Shown here: in pieces, positions 7,521 to 46,289 of the stretch
How the letters are laid out: the number at the start of each line of letters is the position of its first letter
Position numbering within the stretch: the stretch's first letter is position 1
Source of the DNA: Candidatus Saccharicenans sp.
GTDB lineage: Bacteria > Acidobacteriota > Aminicenantia > Aminicenantales > Saccharicenantaceae
Reading direction: 5' to 3'
Length of the DNA stretch: 64,000 nucleotides
Assembly (NCBI GenBank): GCA_049719515.1
Contig: JBNARJ010000011.1
Location: 816 to 64,815, forward strand
The notes under the pieces: generated by a model
Seen by the model: the letters and a program-made list of their open reading frames with translations, nothing else
Told to the model about the DNA's origin: nothing
Database searches by the model: none
Program-made: the position numbers and the translations under genes

Positions 7521-8366
7521 CTATATCGGAATGGATTTGGCGCGCGGGTGAAGAATAGCCCGAAGGACGAGAGCCAGCAGAATTATGACCAGGCCGGCGA
7601 GGGCAGCTATCTCCACCACCCGGTCAGAGGCGGCGGTATCCTGGGTTCTCTTGTAAAGAATTCCGAAAAGGGCCCAAATAACCGTTAAGCCATAAAGCAG
7701 GTCCCTCTTCTTTAAGACGATGATGAGGGTCAAAATTAAAATCAGGGCCAGAACACCAACCGTCCAGAATTGCGGGCTGAGGCCAAACCCATTCCAGCCA
7801 TAGCGGACCAGAACGGCCGTCGTATTGGCCACGGTGGCCACGGAAATCCAGGCTAAGTAGATGCTGAATGGCAGCTTAGCCGGGAACTTATCCAATCTCT
7901 TTTCTTCGTATGGCCTCCGGTCGAGTTTTTGGTAAATAATTATCAGAAGAACCAGCAGCAAAACCATTATCGTTAAAGACCAGGCAAGTTGCTGAAAATG
8001 CCAGGCAAAAATCCAGCCGGCATTGGCCAGGCAGGTCAGAAAAAACAGCAGCCCGACTTTTTTAAAAGCCGGGAAAACTTCCTGTCCGGTAATGGCCTGC
8101 TTCAGCGAAAAGAAGACAAAAACTCCCAAAAGAATGTAGATCACTCCCCAGATGGAGAAAGTAAAGCCGGCCGGCACGAACAGGTTGGGGTATTTATCTG
8201 AAAGCTCGCCGGTAGTCAGATGGTTTAGGGGCAGAGCATTGGCCAGGTAGTTGATGGTCACCATAATCAAAAAGCCAACCAGGTTGAACCAGGCTAACCA
8301 GTTACCGGCTTTTTTCTTTCTTATCTCTGTTGGTTGCCCCCGTAAGAAAGCCTGCGTTCCTTCCAT
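7521..8366 (-). CDS. Polytopic integral membrane protein, Trp-rich (possibly TspO/MBR-related)
   Basis: 281 aa with around 7 predicted hydrophobic helices and many Trp residues. Only a weak resemblance to the TspO signature (PAGFTFSIWGVIYILLG). Confidence 0.35.
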   Translation of the reverse strand: MEGTQAFLRGQPTEIRKKKAGNWLAWFNLVGFLIMVTINYLANALPLNHLTTGELSDKYPNLFVPAGFTFSIWGVIYILLGVFVFFSLKQAITGQEVFPAFKKVGLLFFLTCLANAGWIFAWHFQQLAWSLTIMVLLLVLLIIIYQKLDRRPYEEKRLDKFPAKLPFSIYLAWISVATVANTTAVLVRYGWNGFGLSPQFWTVGVLALILILTLIIVLKKRDLLYGLTVIWALFGILYKRTQDTAASDRVVEIAALAGLVIILLALVLRAILHPRAKSIPI

Positions 8367-8481
8367 TTTGCCCTCCTAAAGGTTTTTGACCAAAATCTCA
8401 GGCCATAAGAAATTTTATTTTATTCTTTATTTTTTTAAAACAATTTGTTAGGCCGTCTGTCAGCTCAGCCCGCTTCCTTAA

Positions 8482-8522
8482 AAAAATCGGGACACACTAT
8501 ATTTTTCCTATTTTTTCTTGCC
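8482..8522 (+). repeat. Solo copy of dispersed intergenic repeat (core AAAAATCGGGACACACTATATTTTTCCTATTTTTT)
   Basis: Near-identical over about 38 bp to the 13465 copy. Intergenic. Confidence 0.6.
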
Positions 8523-8644
8523 ATCATTAGGTTGATATTAATACCGGACACCATTCATTTTCCCAAGGGGTCACTAATTCTTCGCTTTATCCAAATTATG
8601 CCCATTAATAAATATGAAGTTCATATTGGTAAACCAAGAATTGA

Positions 8645-16022: not shown

Positions 16023-16056
16023 CAAAAAGATAAAAAGCAGGCTGTTCGGACAGCCC
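16023..16056 (-). terminator. Candidate rho-independent terminator downstream of lplA (minus strand)
   Basis: On the minus strand, GGGCTGTCCGAACAGCC forms a hairpin and is followed by TGCTTTTTATCTTTTT. Confidence 0.4.
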
Positions 16057-16145
16057 GGTTTAATATCGACCAGCAAAGGCCTCTCTTCTGATGGAGATAT
16101 TTTTTATGTTCCATCCCAGCCGCAGCGAAAAAATTGATTTTTAAC

Positions 16146-17243
16146 TTAACCCTGAGCGGTCAATTTCATGATGGCCGAAACCCAATCTTTAAGTTCGAGG
16201 CCGGGGCACCGCAGGCCAGTAATTTCAAGCGCCCGGGACACGCTTTCCGTAACACTATTTTCTTCAAGCGTAACACCCAGCAGGGCTCTTTCCAGCTCGG
16301 CCACCCCTTCTTTGGGCAGGGCGGTAAAATCCCCGGAAATCCAGACCGAGTCAAGGATTGGTTTTTCACCATCCATCTTAATCCTGGCCGTCAGCCTGAT
16401 CAGACCGCCCGGCGCTTTGTGGTCTACCTCGCGAACCTGAATGTCTTCATGGATCTTGATGGCCGGGCGGCGAAAAGAGCCTTTCTGGAAAATCAAGTCT
16501 TCACTCTGGAAGAGGCGGTCCAGCCTTTCTGCTTCGGATAGCTCGGCCGCCGTCAGCTGACTGAATTCCACTTCGCGGCCGGTAATTTCTCGAACCCTGG
16601 CCAAATAAATCTCTATTACTTTTTCTCTGGAGGGAACTTCTGGCAGAAGCTCCTTCATGGTGGTCATGTACTGCTCGAGGCTCTGGAAGACTTTATCCCT
16701 CATTTTTTCTGATGAGACGCGCAGCACCCGAGACATGGTTTTTTTGTCAAAATCGAACATAAAGCTTCCTACCAGAATTTCCGCCCGGCCGATTTGAGCG
16801 GCGCCCGTGCCGCCAATCTTTTTCCCGGCCACATGAATGTCGTTAATTGGCCGGTAAGAGGCTTCAATGCCCAGCTCTTTATAGGTCTGAATTATTGGCT
16901 CGACATAAAATCTGAATCTTTCCTCAAGCCGGTTGGGCAGGCTTTCCGGGTGAAAAATCCATTGGACAAAAAGCTGATTATGGTCAAGATACACCGCCCC
17001 GCCTCCGACTTCACGCCGATAAACGGGCAGCCCCGCCCGCCGGCAATAATCAAGGTCCACTTCCCGCTCAACTTCCTGGTGAAAACCAACGCAGACGTAA
17101 GGATTGGCCGGACTGACCAGGATGATGGTGTCCGGACTGTCCGGGCGGAAGGCATAGCCCACCGCATGGTAGCAGGTTTGCGACCTTACGGCCGGCACTT
17201 CGCCCAGGTTGATTACCCTGATTTTTTTCTTTCCACCCGTCAT
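16146..17243 (-). CDS. lplA: Lipoate-protein ligase (LplA-type, BPL/LPL catalytic domain plus C-terminal domain)
   Basis: 365 aa. An N-terminal BPL/LPL-like region (HAVGYAF...VCVGFHQE...RRAGLPVYRREVGGGAVY...) and a conserved Lys in VAGKKIGGTGAAQI. It is co-directional with the hydrogenase / sulfur-carrier cluster. Confidence 0.65.
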   Translation of the reverse strand: MTGGKKKIRVINLGEVPAVRSQTCYHAVGYAFRPDSPDTIILVSPANPYVCVGFHQEVEREVDLDYCRRAGLPVYRREVGGGAVYLDHNQLFVQWIFHPESLPNRLEERFRFYVEPIIQTYKELGIEASYRPINDIHVAGKKIGGTGAAQIGRAEILVGSFMFDFDKKTMSRVLRVSSEKMRDKVFQSLEQYMTTMKELLPEVPSREKVIEIYLARVREITGREVEFSQLTAAELSEAERLDRLFQSEDLIFQKGSFRRPAIKIHEDIQVREVDHKAPGGLIRLTARIKMDGEKPILDSVWISGDFTALPKEGVAELERALLGVTLEENSVTESVSRALEITGLRCPGLELKDWVSAIMKLTAQG

Positions 17244-17805
17244 CTTTTTCTATCCTTTAACCTCGGTTTAGTTTATTTTATTTTAATTCTTGTCCAAATA
17301 TCTTGCCAGATATAAATAACTCCCTCGTCTGACTGGCATGCAGATGGCCTTTACCTCTCAATTGAACGAACTTAATTAGTTGGCAGGCGGCCGCGAAAGC
17401 TTCTTGAATAAAGCGAGAAAAATAAAGAAATTCTCCAGTCAGCAACCGGGCTTCCTTTAGGTGGTTTCGTTTTCATTTTTTCTCTGGTTATTCAGGGCCT
17501 TTTGTGGAAACGATGCAGAAAATAATGTTCTCAAAGGGAAGACCTTGTTTTGTTGGTTGAGCCCGGATAGAGCGAACTGAACAACATCTGGTGAATCTCG
17601 ATTGAAATTCCTGTGGTTGATCACTTTAGTGACTAACTGCGTGGTTTGGGACTCCGCCAGTTGTTCTAATTACGCCGCCCACACACTGAGAAATGCCCGA
17701 CGAACCTTTTTGGAATCGATAATCTGATCAAATCCATCCCTGTTAATTTCAACTCCGCATTTAACAAGCCCGCTACAATTTTTCCTTTTTACCTGACAGA
17801 TATTC

Positions 17806-18294
17806 TCATCTGCCCGCTTCCTGTTCCAGCCATCTCGTCAAGACTTCCAGGCCTTTTCTGGCCATTTCCCGCACGGCCTTTTTCACTTCGGCACTGAGGC
17901 CGAGCCCCGTGCTGATGTCTTTTGGTTGAACGCCGATCAAATGAACCTGCTCCGGAAATTTTCCCCGGACCTTGGCCACGGCCAGAACTTCCTGGAAGCC
18001 GAGCTGGTGCCAGGAAATTCTCCCGCGGTAGAAAAGCTCGATTTCTTCATCTTTGTATTCCACCACGCGACCCGGTTCAGCCGCGCCGTCGACCGCATCC
18101 AGAATAAGCAGGTGAGTGGCCCCTTCCACATAGGGAAGCAAATCCATACCCAGCACCCCACCGTCAACCAGCTCTACCCTCGCTCTTATTTCCTCCGGAG
18201 CAATGTTTTCCAGCTCTTTCAGGGCATAGACGCCTGCTCCTTCATCATGGTTGAGGATGTTGCCCAGCCCGAGTATGACAATTCTCTTGGCCAT
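17806..18294 (-). CDS. [NiFe]-hydrogenase maturation endopeptidase (HybD/HyaD/HynD family)
   Basis: MAKRIVILGLGNILNHDEGAGVYA...DGGVLGMDLL...LLILDAVD is the classic HybD pattern. The ORF track opens earlier (18333), but MAKRIV at 18294 aligns with family N-termini. Confidence 0.85.
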   Translation of the reverse strand: MAKRIVILGLGNILNHDEGAGVYALKELENIAPEEIRARVELVDGGVLGMDLLPYVEGATHLLILDAVDGAAEPGRVVEYKDEEIELFYRGRISWHQLGFQEVLAVAKVRGKFPEQVHLIGVQPKDISTGLGLSAEVKKAVREMARKGLEVLTRWLEQEAGR

Positions 18295-18509
18295 TTCAGT
18301 TTCCATCTTCAGGCTCGGCGAAATCAAGGACATATGAAAAACTATTCATATATATTCAGGGCCTCGAACTTATCCATCATCTCTTGTTTTCTGCACTCCG
18401 CCGGCATACGCATCTAACCGCATCATGAATGAGCCAATTAGCAAGCTTCATCTCGCCTGGCAAAAATGCCGGCCGTCCTTTAACTTGGCATACCTATTTT
18501 CTCTCGGCC

Positions 18510-20249
18510 TCAGCGCACCACCAGGTTAAAGCCAGTTCCTACTTCACCGACTTTTTTCCCGCTGGTATCAATCAGATGCACCGCACAGGCCAGGCAGGGG
18601 TCGAAAGAGTGTATTGTCCGCAAAATTTCCAGCGGCTGTGCCGGGTCAGCCAGTTTAGTTCCCACGAGTGAAGCTTCATAGGCCCCGGGCTGATTCTTAT
18701 GGTCGCGGGGCGAAGCATTCCAGGTGGTTGGCACCACTACCTGGTAGTTTTTAATTTTTTTGTTCTCTATCACCACCCAGTGTCCCAGGGCGCCGCGGGG
18801 CGCTTCGGTGTAGCCGAAGCCCATGGCTTTTTTGGGCCAGGTTCGCGGTTCCCATTTTTCAGCATTGAAGGTGTCGGTGCGGCCGGCTTTTATTTCAGCC
18901 ACCAGTTCATCGAAAAATTTCTGCAGCAGGTCAACGATGACCTTGGTTTCGATGGCTCTGGCGGCCGTTCTGCCGAGGGTAGAAAATACAGCACTTACCG
19001 GGGCTTTGAGCTTTTCCAGCACCAGGTTTACCAGTTCGACGGTTTGTTTGTTGCCCGTGGCATAAAGAATCAGCACTCTGGCCAGCGGCCCGACTTCCAT
19101 CGGCAGCTCGTTCCAGCGGGGAGACTTCAGCCAGGAGTATTTACCCTCAACGTTGAGATACTCATAGGGCGGTCTGGGCCCGGTGTAATTGAAAACAGTC
19201 TCACCTTCCCAGGGGAACAGTCCCTCTCCGTCGCCCCTGCTGTACTTATACCAGCTATGGGTAACAAATTCTTTCATTTTCTGAGCATCTCTCGGGTCGG
19301 GAACAATCACATTCTTCAGGTCGCGGTTGATGATAACGCCGCTGGGGAAAATCAACCTGTCAATTTCGTTGAGCTGTCCTTCCGGAAATTCGCCCCAGGC
19401 CAGGAAGTTGCCCAGGCCTTCCCCGATTCCGGCATATTCCAGGTAAAAAGGTGCGATGGCCAGGAGGTCGGGCAGGTAAACCTGCTCCACAAAATCTTTC
19501 ATCCGTTTGATAGAATCGGCAATGACCGCCAGTTTTTCAGCATTTAGGGCCTGGTCGCTGTTCATATCAATGGGCAGCGGCACACCGCCAACCACGAAAT
19601 TGGGGTGCGGGTTTTTCCCGCCAAAGATGGTATGAATTTTCGTTACCTGCGACTGCCAGTCCAGGCACTCCAGGTAATGGGCCACACCCAGCAGGTTTAT
19701 TTCTGGCGGCAGCTTGTAAGCCGGATGTCCCCAGTAGCCGTTGCTGAAGAGTGAAAGCTGCCCGCTGTCCACTATGGCTTTTACCTTTTTTTGCACCTCG
19801 GCAAAATAGCCGGGTGAAGAGTTGGGCCAGGCGGAAAGACTCTGCTGTATTTCTGAAGTCTTTTTCGGGTCAGCCTTCAGGGCGCTGACCACATCGACAA
19901 AATCCAGCGCGTGCAGGATGTAAAAATGCATCACGTGGTCATGGATGAATTGCTGGGCGATAATCATGTTGCGCATCAGGTTGGCGGCTTTCGGGATGTT
20001 TATACCGAGTGCGTCTTCCACCGCCCTGATGGAAGCGATGGCGTGAACCGTGGTGCATACCCCGCAGATTCTCTGGGCAAAAGCCCAGGCATCACGCGGG
20101 TCGCGCTTTTTGAGAATATTCTCTATGCCCCTGACCATCGTCCCGGCGGAATAGGCTTCCGTGATGGTGTTGTTGCCATCCAGGGCGGCTTCAATTCTTA
20201 AATGTCCTTCGATTCGGGTTATCGGGTCTATAACTATTCTGTTAGCCAT
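18510..20249 (-). CDS. hynL: [NiFe]-hydrogenase large subunit (group 1, Isp-type context)
   Basis: An N-terminal RIEGHLRIE motif, CGVCTTVH, a C-terminal DPCLACAVH Ni-binding motif, then a roughly 20 aa extension (the HybD substrate). Start reassigned to MANRIVID at 20249, which has a GGAGGGGAAA SD. The track ORF begins 32 codons earlier. Confidence 0.9.
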   Translation of the reverse strand: MANRIVIDPITRIEGHLRIEAALDGNNTITEAYSAGTMVRGIENILKKRDPRDAWAFAQRICGVCTTVHAIASIRAVEDALGINIPKAANLMRNMIIAQQFIHDHVMHFYILHALDFVDVVSALKADPKKTSEIQQSLSAWPNSSPGYFAEVQKKVKAIVDSGQLSLFSNGYWGHPAYKLPPEINLLGVAHYLECLDWQSQVTKIHTIFGGKNPHPNFVVGGVPLPIDMNSDQALNAEKLAVIADSIKRMKDFVEQVYLPDLLAIAPFYLEYAGIGEGLGNFLAWGEFPEGQLNEIDRLIFPSGVIINRDLKNVIVPDPRDAQKMKEFVTHSWYKYSRGDGEGLFPWEGETVFNYTGPRPPYEYLNVEGKYSWLKSPRWNELPMEVGPLARVLILYATGNKQTVELVNLVLEKLKAPVSAVFSTLGRTAARAIETKVIVDLLQKFFDELVAEIKAGRTDTFNAEKWEPRTWPKKAMGFGYTEAPRGALGHWVVIENKKIKNYQVVVPTTWNASPRDHKNQPGAYEASLVGTKLADPAQPLEILRTIHSFDPCLACAVHLIDTSGKKVGEVGTGFNLVVR

Positions 20250-20265
20250 TTTTCCCCTCCTTTCC

Positions 20266-20586
20266 TCATTGATTGCGAAGCCATTCCAGGGCTTCTTGTT
20301 CGGTTTTGAACCAGCGCACTTCGTTGGCATAATAGCTGCGGTCAATCTCCAGGATTTTGGGGTCGATTTCGGCTCCGATGATGGCGGCTGTGGGCATGAT
20401 CGGCCTCATATGCTTGATATGCCGCAGGCACTCGGAAGGGTCGCTGCCGCTGAGGTCAATCAGCAGCTTGCCGTGGTATTCCCTGAAGAAAACTGTCAGA
20501 GCCTGAATATCTTCCGGAGTAAAAGTTCCCGTATGCCGGCACCTAAGAATACCTTTTTCTACCGGTGTTAAATTAAAGGAAGCCAT
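20266..20586 (-). CDS. Hypothetical 106 aa protein inserted between isp2 and hynL
   Basis: Tightly packed in the operon, with 16 bp to hynL and 15 bp from isp2. No Cys-rich or other recognisable motif. Confidence 0.5.
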   Translation of the reverse strand: MASFNLTPVEKGILRCRHTGTFTPEDIQALTVFFREYHGKLLIDLSGSDPSECLRHIKHMRPIMPTAAIIGAEIDPKILEIDRSYYANEVRWFKTEQEALEWLRNQ

Positions 20587-20601
20587 TTTGCCCTCCTTTC
20601 C

Positions 20602-21858
20602 TTAAACCAGAGCCTTGGAGACCAGTTCGGCCAGACCGTAGACTTTCACCTGGGAGTTAAAGTGAGCCAGGCTGTCCACGAATTGCAGGCGGCAGTTGCT
20701 GCAAACCATGCACACCGCCTCGGCCCGGATGTCCCGGAGCTGCTCCAGCTTCATCTTAAACACGGCATAGCGGTTGGCGTCTGCTTCCTTGATGGAAATT
20801 ACTCCGCCACCCCCGCCGCAGCACATCGACTGTTCTTTGTTTGGAGTCATCTCCCTGAAGCTCCTGGGAGCCAGCACCCGGAGCAGCTCTCGCGGTTGCC
20901 TGATGATTCCACCGCGGCGCTGGATTTTGCAGGAATCGTGGAAGGTGATGGTCTGGCCGTCAAAAGCCCCTTCTTTAATCTTAATTCGACCGGATTTCCA
21001 GAGCTCGTGGATGTATTCGCTGATATGCAGGATGTCCACTCCTTTGGGAACCTTCATGATATTCGGTGCGGTCCAGCGAAAAGCATCGTAGGCATGCCCG
21101 CATTCGCTGATGATAATCTTTTTCACCCCGAGTTCTTCCGCCGCTTTGAATACCCGGTACATAAATAGCTTGGTCAGTTCTTCGTCGGCTTCGAAGTAAC
21201 CAAAATTAACCACCTCACGCCCGGTAGAGCTGACCGTCCAGTTTTCGCCTGCTTTGTTTAAAATTTTGGCGATATGGGCCAGGTTGTCTGGGAATTTCAT
21301 CAGTTCAATGGAGGTGAAAACCATGAGCGTTTCCGCTCCGGCCCTGTCCACCGGAATGTCTACTTCCCATTCATCAGTTATCCAGTCAATCCGTTCGCGC
21401 CACATCTCATCGGTTACGCCGAGCGGGCTGCCGATGGTTTTCTGCTTTTCGGTGGCTTCGGCCAGGTCGCCGGGCACCACTCCGGCGGCGGCCATTCCGG
21501 CTCTAACCTCATGAATCAGCGGGCCGAGCTGGATACCCATCGGGCAGACATGAGCGCACTTGTTGCAGACGGTGCAGGCCTCGTAAACAATTTTGCTCCA
21601 GTGTTCCAGGTCTTTATCGGTGATTTTTTTCTCCAGACCCAGCGCCAGCTTCAGTTTTCCGGCCAGGGTGAAGCGCTGTTCGTAGGCCCGGCGCAGCGGT
21701 TCGAGCTTCCAGATTGGAGCGTACTCAGGATTGCCCAAAGCCTGGTAAAAGTGGCAGGCCTCGGCACAGATACCGCACCTGGTGCAGGCTTCCAGCTGGC
21801 CGGCCACCCAGCCGCCCGTTTCTTTCAGGTAAGTGTTTATGGCAGATTGAGTTTTCAT
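20602..21858 (-). CDS. isp2: HdrD/DsrK-like Fe-S protein (Isp2): two 4Fe-4S ferredoxin motifs plus CCG cysteine-rich domains
   Basis: CTRCGICAEAC and CTVCNKCAHVCP are 4Fe-4S motifs. C-terminal CCG-type motifs (MCCGGGGG...CMVCSNC, SECGHAYD...HDSCK). 418 aa and no signal peptide, so predicted cytoplasmic. Confidence 0.8.
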   Translation of the reverse strand: MKTQSAINTYLKETGGWVAGQLEACTRCGICAEACHFYQALGNPEYAPIWKLEPLRRAYEQRFTLAGKLKLALGLEKKITDKDLEHWSKIVYEACTVCNKCAHVCPMGIQLGPLIHEVRAGMAAAGVVPGDLAEATEKQKTIGSPLGVTDEMWRERIDWITDEWEVDIPVDRAGAETLMVFTSIELMKFPDNLAHIAKILNKAGENWTVSSTGREVVNFGYFEADEELTKLFMYRVFKAAEELGVKKIIISECGHAYDAFRWTAPNIMKVPKGVDILHISEYIHELWKSGRIKIKEGAFDGQTITFHDSCKIQRRGGIIRQPRELLRVLAPRSFREMTPNKEQSMCCGGGGGVISIKEADANRYAVFKMKLEQLRDIRAEAVCMVCSNCRLQFVDSLAHFNSQVKVYGLAELVSKALV

Positions 21859-21872
21859 TTTACGCCTCCTTT

Positions 21873-22550
21873 TCAGGGCATAACTGCCCGTTTCCCGGCC
21901 TGGGCTCCGTGGATCGTCTTGGAGAAGAAGTAGAACAGGAAGTGGGAAATGCGACTGAGCGGAATCCAGATTAAGAGCAGGCTGACTGAAATCAGGTGCA
22001 GGCTGAAAATAACTTCATAGCGGAACCAGAGATGGCGGGCCATGATGAAACCGGTAATCATCGGCAGGAAAACCATAAGCCAGTTAATCCAGACCGGCAG
22101 CCTGGTTAAGAGCTTTAGCACCGGGTGAGTCAGCCGGTTAATAAGGAGAACAATCATCGAAATAATCCCGACTGAGGAGAAGAAAGCCAGCACTGGCGTT
22201 GGTAATGATTTCCAGCCAAAACCGCACAGGCTTTTCCAGACGAGCACATGAGCCGTGCCAAAAGCCAGAATCAGGAACAGACTCAGGTGGAACAGCCCTC
22301 CGGCGATAAAAGTCAGCTCGTTGTTGCGGAAGGTGCGGCGCACCCAGGGGATGAAAGGCAGCACAATGAGGCCCTTCAGGTAATTCAGAATAACCCCCCA
22401 TAGCTTGCTTCCCTTATTTTTTGCCCGGTCTCGCTCCCAGCCCAGCAGGACAACCCGAACCAGCCGGTAGGTCATCCCCATGATGAAAATCATCATTGAC
22501 ACATGGAGGAGAGGACCGCGACTGAAATTCATTATTTCTGTCCAGTTCAT
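21873..22550 (-). CDS. isp1: NarI/HdrE/DsrM-like di-heme b-type cytochrome membrane subunit (Isp1)
   Basis: 225 aa with 5 predicted TM helices and conserved His in TM segments. The size and topology match the nitrate-reductase-gamma fold. It sits between the small subunit gene and isp2. Confidence 0.7.
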   Translation of the reverse strand: MNWTEIMNFSRGPLLHVSMMIFIMGMTYRLVRVVLLGWERDRAKNKGSKLWGVILNYLKGLIVLPFIPWVRRTFRNNELTFIAGGLFHLSLFLILAFGTAHVLVWKSLCGFGWKSLPTPVLAFFSSVGIISMIVLLINRLTHPVLKLLTRLPVWINWLMVFLPMITGFIMARHLWFRYEVIFSLHLISVSLLLIWIPLSRISHFLFYFFSKTIHGAQAGKRAVMP

Positions 22551-22551
22551 C

Positions 22552-23706
22552 TCAGCCCTCCTTCTTGCTTTCGTCTTGAGCGTCCCCGGCCGTTTTGGGC
22601 GTGGTGGCCGTATGATTTTTTTTAGCCCTTTTTTTCTTGACGGCGTTTATCCCGGCCAGAGCGGCGCCCACGGCCACACCGGCTCCAACCAGGGTGGCGG
22701 TTGAACCCTTATCCAGAATGATGGTCGGCGCCGATTGCCCCTGGTAAAAACCGCCCCCATCCCAGAAGTGCGGCTGGGAACAGCCCAGGCAGGGATGGCC
22801 TGACTGCACCGGATAAGACAAGCCGCGTTCCCACTTCAGAGCAGCGCACGCGTTGTAAGTGGTCGGTCCCTTGCAGCCAAGCTTGTAGAGGCAGTAGCCC
22901 TTTTTTGCCCCTTCATCATCGAAACTTTCCGCGAATTTACCGGCCTCATAAAACGGACGGCGCAGGCAGTGGTCGTGCACGGTGTTACCGTAGAACGGGA
23001 GTGGCCTTTTAAGCTCGTCGGTCTTCGGCAGTTCGCCCATGACGAGGAAATGAAGGATTGTTCCGGTGGTGACTTCGGGAATGGCCGGACAGCCGGGAAT
23101 GTTGACCACCGGCTTGTCCTTGATAAGCTCGGCCACCCCCACAGCCTTGGTGGGGTTAGGATAAGCAGCCGGTATCCCGCCAAAGCTGGCGCAATTTCCG
23201 GTGGCAATAACCGCTGCGGCCCCGGCGGCGGCTTCTTTAAGCAGGTCCAGGTTGCTCTTGCCGGCCACCGTGCAGTAGATGCCGTCATCGGCCAGAGTGG
23301 GGCTGCCCTCGATTACCAGGACATACTGGCCGTGATACTTTTTCATACATTCTTCTTTGGCTTTTTCAGCCTGAAATCCCGCCGCAGCCATCAGAGTTTC
23401 GTGGTATTCGATGGCAATGTCGTCCAGGACGAGCTTGCTCAACAGGGGAGAACTGGAACGGGAGATGGCTTCGCTGCAACCGGCACAATCCTGAAATTCA
23501 AGCCAGATAATCGGGAGTTTCGGCTTGGTGGTCAGGGCTTGAGCCACCACTTCGGCCGGTGTCGGATGAACCGTTTTGCCCAGGGCCTTTAACGGCGGGG
23601 CGGCCTCGAGGCCCATCATCGCGGCGATGGTGCCGCAGAGTTTCATGAAGTCCCGCCGGGAGAGCCCCTTTTCCCTCAGATGCTCATAAATCGTTTTTTC
23701 CTTCAT
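22552..23706 (-). CDS. hynS: [NiFe]-hydrogenase small subunit, Tat-exported, C-terminal membrane anchor
   Basis: Twin-arginine signal SRRDFMKLCG. Fe-S cluster ligands (CAGCSEA, GNCASFGGI, IPGCPA, HDHCLRR, LYKLGCKGP). A C-terminal hydrophobic helix followed by a basic tail. SD AAGGAGGG upstream. Confidence 0.9.
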   Translation of the reverse strand: MKEKTIYEHLREKGLSRRDFMKLCGTIAAMMGLEAAPPLKALGKTVHPTPAEVVAQALTTKPKLPIIWLEFQDCAGCSEAISRSSSPLLSKLVLDDIAIEYHETLMAAAGFQAEKAKEECMKKYHGQYVLVIEGSPTLADDGIYCTVAGKSNLDLLKEAAAGAAAVIATGNCASFGGIPAAYPNPTKAVGVAELIKDKPVVNIPGCPAIPEVTTGTILHFLVMGELPKTDELKRPLPFYGNTVHDHCLRRPFYEAGKFAESFDDEGAKKGYCLYKLGCKGPTTYNACAALKWERGLSYPVQSGHPCLGCSQPHFWDGGGFYQGQSAPTIILDKGSTATLVGAGVAVGAALAGINAVKKKRAKKNHTATTPKTAGDAQDESKKEG

Positions 23707-23801
23707 TTGCCCTCCTTGGCGAAGGAATTAAATTAATTTCGATTTACAAACTTTTTATTATGTATAGGGAATTAAGCGCGCCCATTTCTTTTGAAAAAAT
23801 A

Positions 23802-24248
23802 TCAGCCGCAGGAAATTCCGGCCGCTTCCAGCTTCTTTTCGTATTCAGCCAGGCCTTCAGCCCCTGTCAGAAGGGCTGATTTTTCTTCTTCCCATTTGGT
23901 GGCTTCCATCTCCACCACCCAGCCTTCGCCGTAGGGGTCAGTTATGACCAGGTTGGGGTCGGCTGTCAGCCTGTCATTTCCGGCCTTGACGATTCCGGTA
24001 ATGGGTGCCGGAACCGGGCCAACGTACTTGCTGCTTTCCAGGGTGGCCACGCTTTTTCCCTGCTGGACTTCCGTGCCGATGTTCTTGGCTCTGATGGTAA
24101 CGGCGTTCAGTTTTCCGCCGGCCAGCTTGCCGGCAATGGGAGTTAATCCTACCCGGAAAAGATTACCACCCAGGGGTTTGAGCCACAGGTGTTTTTCCGG
24201 GTAATAGTAAAGGTCTTCAGGCAGGTTGCATCCCCTAATTATAGCCAT
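23802..24248 (-). CDS. GcvH-like lipoyl-carrier protein (LbpA-like; not linked to gcvT/P)
   Basis: 148 aa. A glycine-cleavage H-protein fold motif with the lipoyl-Lys context TLESSKYVGPV (compare ESVKA). No other glycine-cleavage genes are nearby. Confidence 0.75.
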   Translation of the reverse strand: MAIIRGCNLPEDLYYYPEKHLWLKPLGGNLFRVGLTPIAGKLAGGKLNAVTIRAKNIGTEVQQGKSVATLESSKYVGPVPAPITGIVKAGNDRLTADPNLVITDPYGEGWVVEMEATKWEEEKSALLTGAEGLAEYEKKLEAAGISCG

Positions 24249-24285
24249 TTTTACCTCCTCTTACTTTTATTTAGAGACCGTATGT

Positions 24286-24654
24286 TCAGAATGTCAGGAC
24301 AGTCTTGCTTTCTTCGGCCATCTGCCACATGGAAGCCCCGCCCACCAGCCTGGCCTCGGGAATCAGGTCTTCCGGCTTCAGTCCGTGAAGCTCGAGTGAA
24401 GCGGTGCAGGCGGTCATTTTAACCCCCGCTTCCAGGGCTTCTCTCAGGAATTCGCCGACCGATTTGCCGCCTTCCTTGGGGAACACTGTATCGGCCACGC
24501 CTTTTTTTAGCAGGAGTGTCCCGTCAATGGTGAAAAACATGGTCACCTCATAGTCCATGGCTGTGGCCAGGGTGGCGAAGAAAAAGGGTGTGGCGCAGCG
24601 CCTGGGGGTATCAGGTCCGCTGGTCATGATGATTAAAATCTTGTCGTCGGCCAT
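24286..24654 (-). CDS. DsrE/DsrF-family sulfur-relay protein (small, DsrE2-like)
   Basis: 122 aa. DsrE-like fold pattern (ILIIMTSGP...), a conserved Cys in MTACTAS, and a C-terminal ...VLTF. Confidence 0.65.
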   Translation of the reverse strand: MADDKILIIMTSGPDTPRRCATPFFFATLATAMDYEVTMFFTIDGTLLLKKGVADTVFPKEGGKSVGEFLREALEAGVKMTACTASLELHGLKPEDLIPEARLVGGASMWQMAEESKTVLTF

Positions 24655-24664
24655 TTCTTCCTCC

Positions 24665-25141
24665 TTAAAAAGTCAGGGTGATGGCGTTCTGGCTGGCAAA
24701 CTCTAAGAAAGTGGCCGCCCCGCCGATTTCAACCCCGTCTATCAGGTCTTCCTTCTTGATACCCATAACATCCATGCTCATCTGGCAGGCAATAAGGCGG
24801 ACACCCATTTCCTTGGCCGTTTCCAGCAGCTCGCTGAGCTTCGGGACCTTGGCTTTTTTCATCCAGGAGTTCATCATCATGGTGGCCGCCGGGGTCATTC
24901 CGGGCAGCATGGCCAGGATGCTGGGCATTTTTACCGGCATGGCCGGATTGGCCAGGGGAGAGACTTTTAGCCTGTCGATTTTTCCCTTTTTCAGAATCTC
25001 AAGGCCGTAGAAGGTGAAAAAGATGGCCGCCTCCATGTCCATGGCCACGGCCGCGGTGGCCAGGATAAACGGCGGGTAGGCCAGGTCAAGCGAGCCGTGA
25101 AGGGCGATTATAGCTAATCTTTTAGCTGTCTGTTCGGGCAT
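24665..25141 (-). CDS. DsrE/DsrF-family sulfur-relay protein (larger, DsrE3-like)
   Basis: 158 aa. LAIIALHGSLD..., a conserved Cys in LIACQMS, and a C-terminal ...TLTF. GGAGG SD upstream. Confidence 0.65.
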   Translation of the reverse strand: MPEQTAKRLAIIALHGSLDLAYPPFILATAAVAMDMEAAIFFTFYGLEILKKGKIDRLKVSPLANPAMPVKMPSILAMLPGMTPAATMMMNSWMKKAKVPKLSELLETAKEMGVRLIACQMSMDVMGIKKEDLIDGVEIGGAATFLEFASQNAITLTF

Positions 25142-25160
25142 GATTTATCCTCCTTGCAGA

Positions 25161-25400
25161 TTATTTTGCTTTTCGTATGTAAAAAATGTACCTGTCACCG
25201 TCCTGCTCATGTTTCAGCAGCTCGTGACCGGTCTTGCTGACCCAGGCCTGGACATCGCTGACCGAGCCGGGGTCGGTGGCAATCATCTTCAGTATCTGTC
25301 CGACCTGCATCCCGTCGATGGCTTTTTTGGTCTTGATGATGGGCATGGGGCAGGACAGACCGCTGTTGTCTAAGGTTACATCAGGGATAAATTCTGACAT
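25161..25400 (-). CDS. tusA: TusA-family sulfurtransferase
   Basis: LDNSGLSCPMPIIKTKKAI contains the diagnostic CPxP motif. Start placed at MSEF (25400), which has an AAGGAGG SD. The track ORF opens at an upstream TTG (25406). Confidence 0.85.
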   Translation of the reverse strand: MSEFIPDVTLDNSGLSCPMPIIKTKKAIDGMQVGQILKMIATDPGSVSDVQAWVSKTGHELLKHEQDGDRYIFYIRKAK

Positions 25401-26166
25401 AGGCAACCTCCTTAATTTTTTTTATTTTTGGTTTGGCAAGAAATATTTATGGCCTGTCCAAATTTTTGTTTGGCCGGCCGAAGCGTCTTTAAGTTGACTT
25501 TTGATTTTTCAGGCTCAAAAGGAATTCGCCGTAAAAAGCAGTTCGGCGGGAAAAATGATGGAGTCTGTCCTGGTTTTCCCTGCCGGTTACCTGAAATGTA
25601 TTCGGGCGGATATGAAGTTGCGTATGAATTTAATGAAGAATTAGAGGAAGCGAAAGATTCAAAAGATGAATACAGAATAAAACGTTGGTGGACAGGTGAT
25701 TTAATCCGGTCAGAGCCTGTCGGCTGACTCCAAGCTTCTGAAATGAAAGCCTTTTCCCTCAGCCGTCCGCTCATGGCTTAATTATCCTATAATTCTTATA
25801 AGAATACAAGGAATTTTTTTATCTTTTTTCTGAACGAAAAGAATAGCCGCCGGACAGCCGATTTTCTTTCATCCCGATGTTAGCGCACCCTTTAATAACA
25901 GGTTAATTTTTAAGAAGCGAAATGTCAAGAAATAGATTTTTCAAGTGATTGGCAAAAGCCCCGGTTGAGGTTCTGGAGACAGGTTTTATTCAGATCAAGT
26001 CGGGTAAATTGGAGTTCAGACCCAAGAGAAGAAGTCGGAGGTCAAATTCCGCGTGGTTCAAAATGAAAGTGGTCTTTATCTTATAATCGAAGTTAAGAAG
26101 AGACAGGAATTAAAATCCGCAAATCATTTTTAATCAATAGGTTAATAAAATTAGTTGAAATTCATC

Positions 26167-26178
26167 TGCAAATTTGCA
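26167..26178 (+). promoter_or_regulatory. Perfect 12-bp palindrome TGCAAATTTGCA, candidate operator 40 bp upstream of the FadL-like gene
   Basis: Self-complementary. Located between the likely promoter region and the RBS. Confidence 0.3.
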
Positions 26179-26220
26179 TAATAGGGGAATCAGCTTTTAC
26201 TTATTCAAAGGAGGTTAAAA

Positions 26221-27564
26221 ATGAAGAAAACGGTATGGCTGTTAGTGCTCGTGCTGGCTCTGGCTTTGAGTGCTTCAGCCGGAGGAATCCTGACCAATAG
26301 TAACCAGAGTGCCGCTTATGTCAGACTTCTGGCCCGCCTTGCCTCCCTTGACGTTGATGCTGTCTATTACAACCCGGCTGGGCTGGTCAAATTGTCTGAC
26401 GGCTTCTACCTGTCTTTGTCCAATCAGTACATCAGTCAGGATAAAACCATCATCAACGGTTTTCCTCTGTTGAATTCCTCGGAATATGTGGGAGAGGTCA
26501 GGGTTCCTGTTTTCCCGGATTTGTATGCGGTTTACAAGAAAGGCAAAATGGCTTTTTCCTTTGGTTTTGGTCCGAATGCCGGTGGCGGTTCAGCCGATTT
26601 TAAAAAAGGGCTGCCCTCGTTTGAGATTCCATTTTCCACCCTGCCCATGCTTATCACCGACATGGACATCCCAACCACGGCCTACCAGCTTGATATGGCC
26701 TTTAAAGGAACGTCTGTTTTCTTCGGTTATCAGCTGAACTTTTCTTACGCCATAAGCGATGTTCTGTCGTTTGGCCTGGGCGGACGGCTTATCCAGGCCA
26801 AGAATGATTATGAAGGCCACATCAGCGATATCATGATCAATCCCCAGCACCCGCTTCTGAACCCGAGCGGCGGATTCATCAGTGCTTATGATTTTTTTAT
26901 GGCCGTCGGTCAGCCAGCTTATGCCGCTCTGGTGGCTGACAAAGAGGTGAAAGTAAAGCAGACCGGTTCTGGTTTTACTCCCATCCTCAGTCTGAACTAT
27001 ATGCCGAGCGAGGCCCTGGTGTTGAGCCTGCGCTATGAGTTCAAAACGAAGCTCGAACTTAAGAATAAAACTACGGTTGACGATACCGGTCTGTTCCCGG
27101 ACGGTTATACTTTCCGCAACGACCTTCCGGCCATACTGGCCGCCGGGCTGAGGTATTCTATTTTCCCGCAGATGCGGGCTCATTTCTCCTTCAGTTACTT
27201 TTTTGATAAGAACGCCAACTGGGAAGGCAGGGAAGAACTGGTCAACAGCAATTCATACGAAATGGCTCTGGGGCTCGAGTATGACCTGAGCAAAACCATT
27301 ACGGCCAGTGCCGGTTACCAGAAAACCAGCTACAGCCTGAGCGATGGCTTTCAGACTGACCTTGACCACGAACTCAGCTGCGACACAATCGGCGGTGGCT
27401 TCCGGTTCAAAGTTAACGACCGGCTTAATTTTGACCTCGGTGCTCTTTATGTTTTTTATAAAAAATACAACAAAACTGATCATTACGGTGATTTATTCAG
27501 CTATCCGGTAACCTTCAAGAGAACCACGTTTGACCTGTCGCTGGGGATAAATTACAGATTCTAA
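26221..27564 (+). CDS. FadL/OmpP1/TodX-family outer-membrane transport protein
   Basis: A signal peptide (MKKTVWLLVLVLALALSASA), amphipathic beta-strand periodicity, and a C-terminal ...GINYRF with terminal Phe. AAGGAGG RBS at 26208. Confidence 0.65.
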   Translation: MKKTVWLLVLVLALALSASAGGILTNSNQSAAYVRLLARLASLDVDAVYYNPAGLVKLSDGFYLSLSNQYISQDKTIINGFPLLNSSEYVGEVRVPVFPDLYAVYKKGKMAFSFGFGPNAGGGSADFKKGLPSFEIPFSTLPMLITDMDIPTTAYQLDMAFKGTSVFFGYQLNFSYAISDVLSFGLGGRLIQAKNDYEGHISDIMINPQHPLLNPSGGFISAYDFFMAVGQPAYAALVADKEVKVKQTGSGFTPILSLNYMPSEALVLSLRYEFKTKLELKNKTTVDDTGLFPDGYTFRNDLPAILAAGLRYSIFPQMRAHFSFSYFFDKNANWEGREELVNSNSYEMALGLEYDLSKTITASAGYQKTSYSLSDGFQTDLDHELSCDTIGGGFRFKVNDRLNFDLGALYVFYKKYNKTDHYGDLFSYPVTFKRTTFDLSLGINYRF

Positions 27565-37596: not shown

Positions 37597-37866
37597 TTTC
37601 TGCTTACATTTTACCTTAATTTTCGTTTTTTAATCAAACTTTATCCTGCCTTCCTTTAATTTTTGAGCCATCTGCCTCTGTGCGGTTTTCAAAAAATAAA
37701 TCCCTTGTTTGCCATAGTTCTGCTTTATCTGACGAAATAAAAATATTTTTATTCCCAAAAAATTAATTTGAAAAAACATTAAAAAACTTTAAAATTCGCT
37801 TGCATATTGGTATATATTGGTATAAAATGGACTACGAAAATATATAAATTTCTAACGAGGTATATT

Positions 37867-38856
37867 ATGGATATAAAATTAAGCATCGAAAAGAATAGCC
37901 CGGTTCCAGCCTACAGGCAGATCATCAGGCAGATAACCTCGATGATCCGCGATGGGTCAATTAAGCCTGGAGATAAGCTGCCCACTGAAAGGGAGCTTGC
38001 CCAGCAATTACAGATAGCCAGGGGGACGGTTAAAAAGGCTTATGAACTGATGGTTAAAGAAGGCCTGATTGAGACCACTCAGGGCCGGGGAACTTTTGTT
38101 TCGGCGAGGCAGGATATTATTCCCAGCGGCCGCAAGGAAAAAGCCATGAAAATGATAGACGGTCTGATTGATGAATTGCGAAGGCTAAATTTTTCTTACC
38201 AGGAAATAAGAACTTTTGTGGAAGTGGCTTTAATCCAGCGGGAAGAAAAATTGGAGAATTTCAATGTGGCTATCATAGATTGCAACCCGGAAAGTTTGGC
38301 TATTTTTGAAAGACAGCTCACTTTTCTCAAGCACGTCCGGGTTTCCAGATTTCTTCTGGACGAAGTTGTGGCCGACCCGCAGGCTGAACGAAGGCTTGAA
38401 CCTTTTGACTTAATCCTGACCACCAGCACCCACTACAGCGAACTATTGGGTAAAATCGCCAGGCTTAAGGACAGATTGATTCAGGTAGCTGTGTCCCCCA
38501 GCCAGGAAACCATAATCGAGATGGCTAGCTTGAGCCCCATTCAGAGGCTGGGTGTGGTTTGCGAGAGCCAGAATTTCCTGGCCAGAGTGGTAGATAGAAT
38601 AAAAGAGATGGGCCTGGCCACCGGTCAGATTCCTTATTTGTTTTTTAAGGACGAAGAAAACCTGCCCGAGTTTTTGGAAAAGGTTGATGTGGTTTTTGTT
38701 CCGCCAGGTTATCAGCTCCAGAGAAAGAAAGAAAACCTGGCCGCCGTTCAAAATTTTACTCAAAGAGGGGGTAAGGTCATCGTTTTTGACTACCAGATCG
38801 AAAGAGGTTCATTACTTTATGTGGAAGAAAGAATCAGCCAGCTTTTGAACCCTTGA
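37867..38856 (+). CDS. GntR-family transcriptional regulator with large C-terminal effector domain
   Basis: An N-terminal winged HTH (PGDKLPTERELAQQLQIARGTVKKAYELMVKEGLI). Start moved to MDIKLS (37867; GAGG RBS) rather than the track start 37807. Confidence 0.7.
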   Translation: MDIKLSIEKNSPVPAYRQIIRQITSMIRDGSIKPGDKLPTERELAQQLQIARGTVKKAYELMVKEGLIETTQGRGTFVSARQDIIPSGRKEKAMKMIDGLIDELRRLNFSYQEIRTFVEVALIQREEKLENFNVAIIDCNPESLAIFERQLTFLKHVRVSRFLLDEVVADPQAERRLEPFDLILTTSTHYSELLGKIARLKDRLIQVAVSPSQETIIEMASLSPIQRLGVVCESQNFLARVVDRIKEMGLATGQIPYLFFKDEENLPEFLEKVDVVFVPPGYQLQRKKENLAAVQNFTQRGGKVIVFDYQIERGSLLYVEERISQLLNP

Positions 38857-38910
38857 ATTTAAGCCAGTTTCACGCGGTCTTCAGTCATTTAAGTAACTAA
38901 GGAAAGGTTT

Positions 38911-40835: not shown

Positions 40836-40847
40836 GAGGTTAGGAAG

Positions 40848-44929: not shown

Positions 44930-44939
44930 GGGGACATAG

Positions 44940-45287: not shown

Positions 45288-45312
45288 GCCCCGGCGGGCT
45301 TGAGGATAGATA

Positions 45313-46263: not shown

Positions 46264-46289
46264 ATCTTAATTTAGGGGGAGAAGAAACC

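Follow-up and report, generated by a model that had tools for sequence, protein, structure and literature searches.

The 64,000-nucleotide stretch of Candidatus Saccharicenans sp. that we analysed (hereafter, the window) carries on its minus strand, from position 25406 down to 17806, the genes tusA, dsrE2-like, dsrE3-like, lbpA-like, hynS, isp1, isp2, a gene for a 106-amino-acid STAS-like protein, hynL and a maturation protease gene. The original prediction had listed these ten open reading frames; all were present, and domain and profile searches recovered the named domain in each. Its inventory was incomplete, however, as it overlooked an eleventh co-directional gene, lpl(AB) (16146–17243). 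From tusA to the protease gene, the intergenic gaps measured 19, 10, 37, 95, 1, 14, 15, 16 and 176 nt, and a further 562 nt separated the protease gene from lpl(AB). The 95-nt spacer between lbpA and hynS is AT-rich and could hold an internal promoter. A terminator at this junction was to have refuted the proposed linkage; no terminator-like hairpin was found there, and the median gap across the genomes compared was 56 nt. As the 3′ terminus of the unit we favour, on a consensus match only, a terminator-like hairpin with a T-run (16038–16057, minus strand; 8-pair stem with 5 GC pairs, tail CTTTTTATCT) about 90 nt 3′ of lpl(AB). Among the other genes of the window is a cluster for glutamate fermentation.

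The first three genes encode sulfur carriers. TusA (25161–25406; PF01206, E = 9e-27; an alternative start may lie at the ATG at 25400) was predicted to have a CPxP motif, and indeed has CPMP, with Cys19 as the active-site residue; motif and cysteine alike are unchanged in all 23 cluster homologues. Both DsrE proteins likewise have the conserved cysteines ascribed to them. In the 158-residue DsrE2-like sulfurtransferase (24665–25141; PF13686, E = 2e-50) Cys119 is invariant; the protein scored 170 bits against the NCBIfam DsrE2 model, short of the cut-off of 210, and its closest solved structure is 2QS7, named DsrE2B (PMC11094781). In the 122-residue DsrE3-like sulfurtransferase (24286–24654; PF02635, E = 1e-19) Cys20 (PRRCATPF) and Cys83 are invariant, the latter aligning with the active-site cysteine of the closest solved structure, the DsrE3A 3MC3.

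The fourth gene (23802–24248) encodes a 148-residue protein with an H-protein fold (GCV_H, E = 3e-27; AlphaFold2 model against Escherichia coli H-protein, TM 0.78/0.89), yet in profile searches it scored under every curated GcvH cut-off. Its lipoyl-Lys74, Cys7 and penultimate Cys147 were all invariant, and two extra cysteines, N- and C-terminal, are the hallmark that separates LbpA from GcvH (PMC6067878). Its closest homologues outside the clade (35–47% identity) are located in sHdr clusters that also hold HdrA-like, CCG, EtfAB, ligase and radical-SAM genes. Because these residues match the published hallmark and the nearest out-clade relatives sit in sHdr clusters, we identify the protein, from its sequence, as an LbpA-type lipoate-binding protein. 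The absence of glycine-cleavage partners noted in the original prediction agrees with this identity: a scan of some 50 ORFs of the window found neither gcvT nor gcvP, and also no radical-SAM lipoyl synthase; lipS1 and lipS2 were likewise absent from the window. The overlooked lpl(AB) encodes a fused lipoate–protein ligase, with an LplA catalytic domain (PF21948, E = 1.5e-39) and an LplB C-terminal domain (NF053749 over residues 274–360). Of the 28 related loci, 20 have a homologue beside the cluster, at a median of 25 nt 3′ of the protease gene.

The hydrogenase genes surround isp1 and isp2 in the Isp-type order that had been claimed (hynS–isp1–isp2–hynL). HynS (22552–23706; TIGR00391, 424 bits) has a Tat signal (SRRDFMK; TIGR01409), a C-terminal hydrophobic anchor and invariant Fe–S ligand Cys and His residues. 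HynL (18510–20249; PF00374, 766 bits) retains invariant C62, C65, C552, C555 and H558, with a 21-residue C-terminal extension past His558. Its expected assignment to group 1e was supported by its best PDB match, 3MYR_B (814 bits versus 716 for the next), the HynL of Allochromatium vinosum, the archetype of the Isp-type enzymes. A hynL start at the upstream TTG at 20345 was rejected; the product of the ATG at 20249 matches A. vinosum HynL in alignment from the first residue of each. The last of the ten genes, hynD (17806–18333; PF01750, E = 3e-29; TIGR00072, 132 bits), encodes a HyaD/HybD-type (HycI/HybD) maturation endopeptidase.

Between the hydrogenase subunits, isp1 (21873–22550) encodes a membrane cytochrome b of the NarI/HmcE/TmcC type (NF045723 TmcC, 110 bits; NF045716 HmcE, 85 bits; both below cut-off), with His88, 101, 173, 185 and 203 invariant. 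The cytoplasmic iron–sulfur protein Isp2 (20602–21858; PF02754 and Fer4_8) has two CX2CX2CX3C motifs and one complete CCG motif (C310, C346, C347, C386 and C389). Its top NCBIfam match was DsrK (229 bits against a cut-off of 400), followed by HmcF (222) and TmcB (217), whereas GlpC scored only 25–40 bits; this grouping upholds the proposed HdrD/DsrK-like character and sets the protein apart from GlpC and LutB. The adjoining 106-residue protein (20266–20586; weakly PF11964, SpoIIAA-like, E = 8e-6) has an unknown role. It has a predicted STAS fold (AlphaFold2 pLDDT 86; Foldseek matches to RsbS, SpoIIAA and the SLC26 STAS domain, TM about 0.6), with Cys16, His18 and Cys53 invariant. Only 159 homologues were found, every one about 106 residues long, and its gene is present in 17 of the 28 related loci.

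Those 28 loci, all intact and drawn from five or more phyla (Acidobacteriota, Chloroflexota, Bacteroidota, Calditrichota and Actinomycetota), all have the order tusA–dsrE2–dsrE3–lbpA–hynS–isp1–isp2–hynL, a repetition that excludes chance adjacency. Nearly all carriers are metagenome-assembled genomes, most of them from fermentative anaerobes (Anaerolineae, Aminicenantes, Ignavibacteria) and from places where H2 is scavenged, among them digesters and sediments; the phototroph Oscillochloris is also among them. We observed that pairwise identity of LbpA correlates with that of HynL (r = 0.83), HynS (0.82), Isp2 (0.79) and Isp1 (0.77), and that HynL averages 77% identity across the module loci. 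In a control set of classical Allochromatium-type group 1e loci, genes for TusA, DsrE, LbpA, the ligase and the STAS protein occurred in 0 of 80. HynL is 62% identical to its classical counterparts, with far lower values for Isp2 (37–40%, with 30 class-specific positions) and Isp1 (28–30%). We also found a sister arrangement without hydrogenase (loci L043, L044 and L167), in which a DsrM-like/DsrK-like pair lies between dsrE3 and lbpA (tusA–dsrE2–dsrE3–DsrM-like–DsrK-like–lbpA), so that the CCG protein is linked with the carriers even where the hydrogenase is missing. In L167, an ArsR-type regulator gene lies 5′ of tusA. No sulfur importer or sulfur-reduction marker was consistently linked to the cluster.

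The combination had been thought undescribed, and full-text literature searches found no description of it, although several known systems share parts. The Isp-type HynS–Isp1–Isp2–HynL of A. vinosum and Thiocapsa has the same order of small subunit, cytochrome b, HdrD-like protein and large subunit, the Tat signal on the small subunit, all 14 Isp2 cluster cysteines and a link to sulfur, H2-dependent S0 reduction in the dark having been reported for Thiocapsa Hyn (PMC10892978). In the 80 classical loci, however, the protease gene lies 5′ of hynS and the carrier, ligase and STAS genes are missing, and the module carriers here are non-proteobacterial anaerobes. With the sHdr–LbpA system (types I and II) the locus shares the LbpA lipoyl-lysine and N- and C-terminal cysteines, a C-terminal GI[S/E/K]C motif, a dedicated fused ligase (there sLpl(AB)), the TusA, DsrE2 and DsrE3 set and a CCG-domain redox partner. 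Unlike that system, it has no sHdrA/HdrA-like flavoprotein, HdrB1/B2/C1/C2, ETF or LipS1/S2 in cluster or window; the CCG role falls to a DsrK-like Isp2, tied to the membrane and connected to a periplasmic hydrogenase, and none of its carriers is a known sulfur oxidiser. DsrMK(JOP)–DsrC and the Hmc and Tmc complexes of sulfate reducers likewise pair a membrane cytochrome b with a cytoplasmic CCG protein, believed to reduce a di- or trisulfide borne on the flexible arm of a protein. They supply the best curated matches to Isp2 (DsrK) and Isp1 (TmcC/HmcE), yet all fall below family cut-offs, and the cluster lacks DsrC, DsrAB, DsrJOP and a cytochrome c subunit. The penultimate cysteine of LbpA resembles the C-terminal cysteine of DsrC, but the putative substrate protein here has an H-protein fold and lipoate. 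Finally, the dsrE3A–dsrE2B–tusA cluster of Metallosphaera cuprina places the same three carrier families together beside an Hdr-like enzyme, but is archaeal, aerobic and sulfur-oxidising, with no hydrogenase linkage (Liu et al. 2014, PMC4175335).

With evenly balanced confidence, and with no expression, biochemical or physiological data for any carrier, we propose as the most likely reading that the locus encodes an H2:carrier-bound-sulfur oxidoreductase, which joins an Isp-type (group 1e) hydrogenase to an sHdr-type sulfur-relay and lipoate toolkit. Tat-exported HynSL, anchored on the outside of the membrane, would oxidise H2 and set protons free outside. Electrons would cross the membrane through two haems b of Isp1 to two [4Fe–4S] clusters and the CCG-domain cluster of Isp2. 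Isp2 would then reduce a disulfide, persulfide or trisulfide held by LbpA on the lipoyl arm (K74), on the Cys7/Cys147 pair or on both, as modelled on DsrK acting on DsrC trisulfide or HdrD on CoM-S-S-CoB. DsrE3, DsrE2 and TusA would deliver sulfane sulfur as cysteine persulfides to LbpA, which the dedicated ligase would lipoylate, and the sulfur would leave as H2S; dihydrolipoate takes up sulfane sulfur and sets free H2S. With protons released outside and consumed inside, such a redox loop may conserve energy, although the textbook yield of H2 + S0 is only about −28 kJ/mol, which would make a full loop marginal. Gene order kept across genomes, co-divergence of the proteins and the DsrMK-like variant without hydrogenase strongly favour, but do not demonstrate, an electron path in which H2 feeds a CCG enzyme through haem b and that enzyme acts on lipoyl or on sulfur bound to carriers. 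That Isp2 uses LbpA or carrier-bound sulfur as its substrate, that electrons flow in this direction and that energy is conserved are all inferred. Against the proposal stand the lack of a consistently linked sulfur importer or sulfur-reduction marker and of lipS1/lipS2 in the window; in addition, the cluster cysteines of Isp2 are the same as in classical Isp2, which functions without an adjoining LbpA.

Sequence alone does not settle which way electrons run: group 1e enzymes work in both directions, and no role for LbpA outside sulfur oxidation is yet known. It is possible, if unlikely, that Isp2 with LbpA, TusA and DsrE oxidises carrier thiol- or sulfide-level sulfur (a two-electron step from thiol to disulfide or persulfide) and passes electrons via Isp1 to menaquinone, with the hydrogenase as a second donor on a shared cytochrome b, so that respiration or photosynthesis would draw on H2 and reduced sulfur alike. 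TusA and DsrE, too, are known so far from sulfur oxidisers only, some cytochromes b of the Isp1 family (NarI/DsrM/HmcE) react with quinones, and the quinone pool is the sole partner for the hydrogenase-less variant; the ArsR-type regulator in L167 and the presence of the cluster in Oscillochloris also favour oxidation. However, a lone DsrK-like protein lacks the HdrA/B1/B2/C1/C2 set thought to be needed for oxidation to sulfite, the carriers are mostly fermentative anaerobes, and the strict flanking of isp1–isp2 by hynS and hynL argues for direct coupling of H2 to Isp2. Reversibility (PMC10892978), the largely fermentative carriers of H2-scavenged habitats and the glutamate-fermentation cluster would also suit an electron sink, in which Isp2 re-oxidises fermentation-reduced LbpA (dihydrolipoyl, about −290 mV) or carrier thiols and HynSL releases H2 at low H2 partial pressure. 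We consider this improbable: electrons moving outward while protons are consumed in the periplasm would run down the proton-motive force, no dehydrogenase able to load LbpA (E1/E3 or GcvP/T) is linked, and TusA and two DsrE proteins are left unexplained.

A non-respiratory role, with H2 driving lipoyl-LbpA reduction for detoxification of polysulfide or reactive sulfur or for thiol/peroxide defence and TusA and DsrE acting as scavengers, has little to recommend it. Lipoylated proteins are active in oxidant defence (PMC10332631), and reactive-sulfur detoxification has been proposed for DsrE4-type proteins (PMC11094781). Yet an uptake hydrogenase that is exported by Tat, anchored in the membrane and paired with a transmembrane cytochrome b has the build of a respiratory enzyme, and cross-phylum conservation as a single unit, with HynL so similar throughout, fits a core energy function. 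That a sulfur-carrier/LbpA operon merely adjoins a hydrogenase operon, as the possible internal promoter 5′ of hynS and the 562-nt gap before the ligase gene would allow, is strongly disfavoured and scarcely tenable: the order is identical in every related locus across phyla, the proteins co-diverge (r about 0.8), classical loci lack the module, the junction has no predicted terminator, and the ligase gene lies on the far side of the hydrogenase genes.

A conserved operon here joins a membrane-bound, H2-oxidising hydrogenase to sulfur carriers and to an LbpA-type protein, a kind previously recorded in sulfur oxidisers alone, which points to an undescribed link of hydrogen to intracellular sulfur metabolism in many uncultured anaerobes.

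Ten ORFs run in one direction on the minus strand of the window from 25406 to 17806, spaced 1–176 nt apart, and Pfam and NCBIfam profile searches bore out what the original prediction had assigned to every gene of the cluster. In order, they encode TusA (E = 9e-27), a 158-aa DsrE2-like protein (PF13686, E = 2e-50), a 122-aa DsrE3-like DsrE protein, a 148-aa GCV_H-domain protein (the lipoate-binding protein LbpA), the hydrogenase small subunit HynS (TIGR00391, 424 bits), the 225-aa TmcC/HmcE-like membrane protein Isp1, the 418-aa Isp2, in which two ferredoxin-type motifs accompany a CCG domain, a 106-aa protein whose SpoIIAA-like match is weak, the large subunit HynL (PF00374, 766 bits; start ATG at 20249) and a HybD-type maturation protease. 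All ten predicted genes stood, but an eleventh on the same strand had been missed, a lipoate-protein ligase, Lpl(AB), containing both LplA and LplB domains (17243–16146). A terminator-like hairpin lies 3′ of the ligase gene (16057–16038); our promoter and terminator scans gave background-level signal and were not tuned for the Acidobacteriota-type phylum of the window. The 562-nt gap between protease and ligase (17244–17805) has no ORF longer than 55 aa; in other genomes a median of 25 nt separates the two genes, or hypC lies between them. On the other side, about 800 nt (25407–26220) separate tusA from a divergent FadL/TodX-like outer-membrane gene (26221–27564, plus strand); this interval, in which the only ORF found (120 aa) had no Pfam match, probably serves the operon as promoter and regulatory region.

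The arrangement is conserved far beyond this genome. Using context look-ups and phmmer searches of 80 genome loci, we counted genes over 28 intact related loci. All 28 had dsrE3, lbpA, hynS, isp1 and isp2; tusA and dsrE2 were present in 26, as was hynL, the other two loci being ended by contig ends. The protease was found in 24, a ligase homologue adjoined the cluster in 20, and 17 had the STAS-like gene for the 106-aa protein. Gene order was identical throughout, with median gaps of 9–73 nt (56 nt between lbpA and hynS); the co-occurrence of tusA, dsrE and lbpA with hynS-isp1-isp2-hynL, which the original prediction had proposed to survey, was met in one order only. Going by record titles, carriers belong to Acidobacteriota, Calditrichia, Actinomycetota, Bacteroidota (Ignavibacteriaceae and Melioribacteraceae) and Chloroflexota (Anaerolineae, Caldilineaceae, Thermoflexales, Herpetosiphon and the cultured Oscillochloris sp. 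ZM17-4). Pairwise identities of LbpA correlated with those of HynL (r = 0.83), HynS (0.82), Isp2 (0.79) and Isp1 (0.77), which indicates that the cluster diverges as one unit and is probably transferred as one. In two long-read MAGs (L009 and L035) the whole cluster appears broken into many short ORFs, reflecting either frameshift-type assembly errors or pseudogenes.

A census of neighbours at 30 loci found only a PocR–HTH regulator and hyp genes to recur. The regulator, with PocR and HTH_17 domains, lies directly 5′ of tusA in 23 of these loci (for example, 7811–8560 in locus L004 and 7760–8512 in L006) and is absent from the window and the other Acidobacteriota-type loci. Sulfur importers, sulfite exporters and reductases did not recur in the census, TauE occurring in one locus.

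The expectation that the large subunit belongs to group 1e was supported by PDB bit scores. HynL matched Allochromatium vinosum HynL best (3MYR_B, 814 bits), ahead of hydrogenase-1 (large subunit 4C3O, 716 bits; chain 3UQY, 677 bits), hydrogenase-2 (6G7M, 544 bits) and periplasmic [NiFe] hydrogenases (about 510–520 bits). Its product from the ATG at 20249 aligns with A. vinosum HynL from residue 1, the Ni–Fe ligands C62, C65, C552 and C555 together with H558 are invariant among cluster homologues, and 21 residues follow H558 as a C-terminal extension. For a control, metagenome contigs were searched with A. vinosum HynL, whose sequence we rebuilt from its alignment with 3MYR. The best 80 loci were classical Isp-type operons ordered protease-hynS-isp1-isp2-hynL, sharing the hynS-isp1-isp2-hynL order of the window, and none of the 80 had a TusA, DsrE, LbpA, ligase or STAS gene within the limited flanks, which reached 2 kb or more upstream of hynS in 25 loci and 2 kb or more downstream of hynL in 41.

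Compared with these classical loci, the window proteins are 62% identical in HynL and about 50% in HynS, but only 37–40% in Isp2 and 28–30% in Isp1. Isp2 has the full set of 14 cluster-binding cysteines in both classes, and 30 of its positions are class-specific. On PDB scores, gene order and these comparisons, without a full tree or HydDB run, we place the window enzyme firmly as group 1e-like; the same data indicate a distinct sub-lineage whose electron-transfer subunits diverged together with gain of the LbpA module.

The carrier protein was predicted to be GcvH-like, with a lipoyl-lysine context and no glycine-cleavage partners. Both parts held: K74, within ESSK, aligns with the lipoyl-lysine of GcvH and is invariant, and neither gcvT nor gcvP was found among the scanned window ORFs or in the flanks of related loci. 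An AF2 model (pLDDT 74) has the H-protein fold (TM 0.78/0.89 to the Escherichia coli protein). All curated GcvH models, however, scored it below their cut-offs (93.8 bits against 117 for NF002270; 71.4 against 115.85 for TIGR00527). The most conspicuous difference between sHdr LbpA and GcvH is a pair of strictly conserved cysteines near the termini (Cao et al. 2018, PMC6067878), and C7 and the penultimate C147 stay invariant across all 25 aligned cluster copies, as in an alignment of 18 homologues. Low-scoring GcvH-like matches (66–87 bits) lacked the pair. True GcvH is ruled out by the sub-cut-off scores, the LbpA cysteines, the lack of nearby gcvT and gcvP, and the linked ligase.

We then scanned one genome per GTDB species for the LbpA family, obtaining 80 loci. 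Copies of at least 54% identity all lay within hydrogenase clusters, and those of 35–47% within sHdr-type clusters, with N- and C-terminal cysteines in most copies, as in most of the sHdr-linked candidates (loci L032–L055), and a C-terminal GI[S/E/K]C motif in many. One such sHdr-type cluster, in Alicyclobacillus tolerans, combines HdrA-like and CCG proteins, EtfAB and further GcvH-family (LbpA-like) genes with ligases, TusA, DsrE and two radical-SAM genes. Given K74, the C7/C147 pair, the GcvH scores and this sHdr-linked next tier, the protein is LbpA by every sequence criterion. Its lipoylation by Lpl(AB) is a proposal inferred from gene content alone, with no lipoylation data, and searches of the PDB by sequence and by fold returned GcvH entries and no LbpA.

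The sulfur carriers were likewise as predicted, a TusA with a CPxP motif and two DsrE proteins with conserved cysteines: C19 in the CPMP motif of TusA, C119 of DsrE2 and C83 and C20 of DsrE3 are invariant. The closest solved relatives of the 158-aa and 122-aa proteins are 2QS7 and 3MC3, which are DsrE2B and DsrE3A, respectively (Tanabe et al. 2024, PMC11094781). In some Chloroflexota copies an extra small DsrE-family gene lies between tusA and dsrE2 (L009, L012, L018, L023, L025, L026 and L030). TusA and DsrE-type sulfurtransferases with active-site cysteines are common to the sHdr system and the window cluster; the sHdr partner of LbpA, however, is missing here. Unlike the true sHdr loci L034 and L168, the cluster lacks sHdrA with HdrB1/B2/C1/C2 (type I) and HdrA/B/C with EtfAB (type II). 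Pyr_redox_2/HdrA-like, additional CCG and ETF genes were found neither in the cluster nor among about 50 scanned window ORFs, and the census of 30 loci contained no sHdr core genes.

A sister form lacks the hydrogenase altogether. In Chloroflexota MAGs and metagenomes, three loci (L043, 4806–8791; L044, 5666–10441; L167, 3217–8441) have the order tusA-dsrE2-dsrE3-cytochrome b (NarI/DsrM-like)-CCG protein (DsrK-like)-lbpA, with a thioredoxin or ArsR-type regulator 5′ of tusA. Their CCG protein shares 35% identity with Isp2 and reaches 310 bits against the DsrK model; the LbpA subtype comprises about 55 protein clusters at identities of at least 77%, and its next relatives again lie in type II sHdr clusters. 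In L044 the ORF at 7951–8640, between dsrE3 and the CCG gene, is not Isp1-like; the real DsrM/NarI-like gene occupies an overlapping frame (7925–8644), with a marginal BLASTP match to Isp1. Sister, sHdr and hydrogenase loci thus pair one carrier/LbpA set with three kinds of CCG-domain redox module: sHdr, a DsrMK-like pair and HynSL–Isp1–Isp2. No other comparison argues as strongly for the CCG protein as the enzyme that acts on LbpA or carrier-bound sulfur.

Isp2 itself had been predicted to be HdrD/DsrK-like and not of the GlpC or lactate-utilization type. NCBIfam scores agree: its best curated matches are DsrK (229 bits), HmcF (222 bits) and TmcB (217 bits), and GlpC and LutB, at only 25–40 bits, are ruled out. 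Though Isp2 and Isp1 resemble DsrK and TmcC/HmcE, they fall short of the curated cut-offs (400 bits for the DsrK equivalog NF045796; 110 against 240 bits for Isp1 on TmcC), and Isp1 had no match to the DsrM equivalog NF038037. No DsrC was found among the scanned ORFs of the 64-kb window, and an exact-sequence look-up of the window Isp2 returned no record. In locus L003, a 1.95-Mb contig with the full cluster, a DsrC gene lies 8 kb upstream, in a stretch (1505–5358) 5–8 kb upstream of tusA that also has a cysteine desulfurase and a second HmcE/HmcF-like pair of cytochrome b and CCG protein; TauE and DUF1634 genes follow the ligase.

The 106-aa protein, predicted with confidence by AF2 (pLDDT 86), is weakly STAS-like (TM about 0.6 to RsbS, SpoIIAA and the SLC26 STAS domain), which gives no lead to its function. 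Only 159 homologues were found, all of about 106 aa, with C16, H18 and C53 invariant.

Elsewhere in the window we observed a methylaspartate-route glutamate fermentation cluster (37807–47888, plus strand) comprising a GntR regulator, the glutamate mutase B12-binding subunit, MutL, MutE, methylaspartate ammonia-lyase, an AtuA-like protein with DUF4387 and a class I fumarate-hydratase-like gene, possibly a mesaconase. On the minus strand, a multihaem cytochrome c with NapC/NirT and c554 domains (62361–63734) adjoins a 392-aa ORF without Pfam match (61150–62328), and three consecutive overlapping ORFs of 791, 231 and 348 aa (51573–55679) also have no Pfam match.

What the cluster does can be proposed from topology and analogy. 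HynS has a Tat signal (TIGR01409 over residues 15–33, with an SRRDFMK motif) and a C-terminal anchor, the five invariant histidines of Isp1 would be enough for two haems b, and no signal peptides were predicted in Isp2, LbpA, TusA or the DsrE proteins. HdrDE acts on CoM-S-S-CoB and DsrMK on the DsrC trisulfide; dihydrolipoate can take up sulfane sulfur and release sulfide. On the model of HdrDE and DsrMK/DsrC, H2 would be oxidized at the outer side of the membrane and electrons passed through Isp1 across it to Isp2, which would reduce a disulfide, persulfide or trisulfide of LbpA, sulfane sulfur entering via DsrE3, DsrE2 and TusA and leaving as H2S. We consider this the most likely reading, although it stands at no better than an even chance. 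It is consistent with the dihydrolipoate chemistry. It also accords with the reported H2-dependent S0 reduction by Thiocapsa Hyn (PMC10892978).

The sequence data do not settle the direction of electron flow, and an oxidative or dual-donor arrangement feeding quinone, though unlikely, remains among the alternatives. Evolution of H2 as a fermentative electron sink seems to us a good deal less probable, and a non-respiratory role for reduced LbpA slightly less so again. Coincidental adjacency, which would leave hydrogenase and sulfur module unconnected, is ruled out by the synteny survey and the classical group 1e control, and we give it next to no weight.

The cluster may represent a third, hitherto unrecognized class of sulfur enzyme that depends on LbpA. 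It would be an H2:LbpA-(per)sulfide oxidoreductase, bound to the membrane and conserving energy, amounting to horizontally spread cytoplasmic sulfur respiration; we advance this tentatively, rating it somewhat short of even. Were it so, the lipoate of LbpA and its flanking cysteines would stand in for the CoM-S-S-CoB of HdrDE and the DsrC trisulfide of DsrMK, and the enzyme would have passed horizontally between uncultured Chloroflexota, Acidobacteriota/Aminicenantes, Bacteroidota/Ignavibacteria, Calditrichota and Actinomycetota. Taken further, this reading would show what type of physiological substrate, long sought, Isp2 has in all Isp-type hydrogenases.

The modules are known; their conserved and widespread combination is new. 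In full-text literature, excluding subscription-only papers, no paper came to light in which LbpA, TusA or DsrE is linked with an Isp hydrogenase, and we found no description of LbpA outside the sHdr context, in keeping with the original prediction, which did not recognize the combination as a described system. Isp-type hydrogenases are physiologically tied to sulfur, and the physiological partner of Isp2, the HdrD-like subunit encoded between the structural genes, was not established in the papers examined. LbpA is essential for sHdr sulfur oxidation, with its chemical role unresolved, and has been described only in sulfur oxidizers. The operon and its DsrMK-like sister form nominate a substrate pair, Isp2 and LbpA loaded by TusA and DsrE, and extend lipoate-dependent sulfur chemistry to abundant anaerobic heterotrophs of sediments, aquifers and digesters. 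Should the reductive reading prove right, LbpA genes in metagenomes could no longer be taken as markers of sulfur oxidation, and the cycling of H2 and sulfur would include a sink so far overlooked, the H2-driven reduction of sulfur inside the cell.
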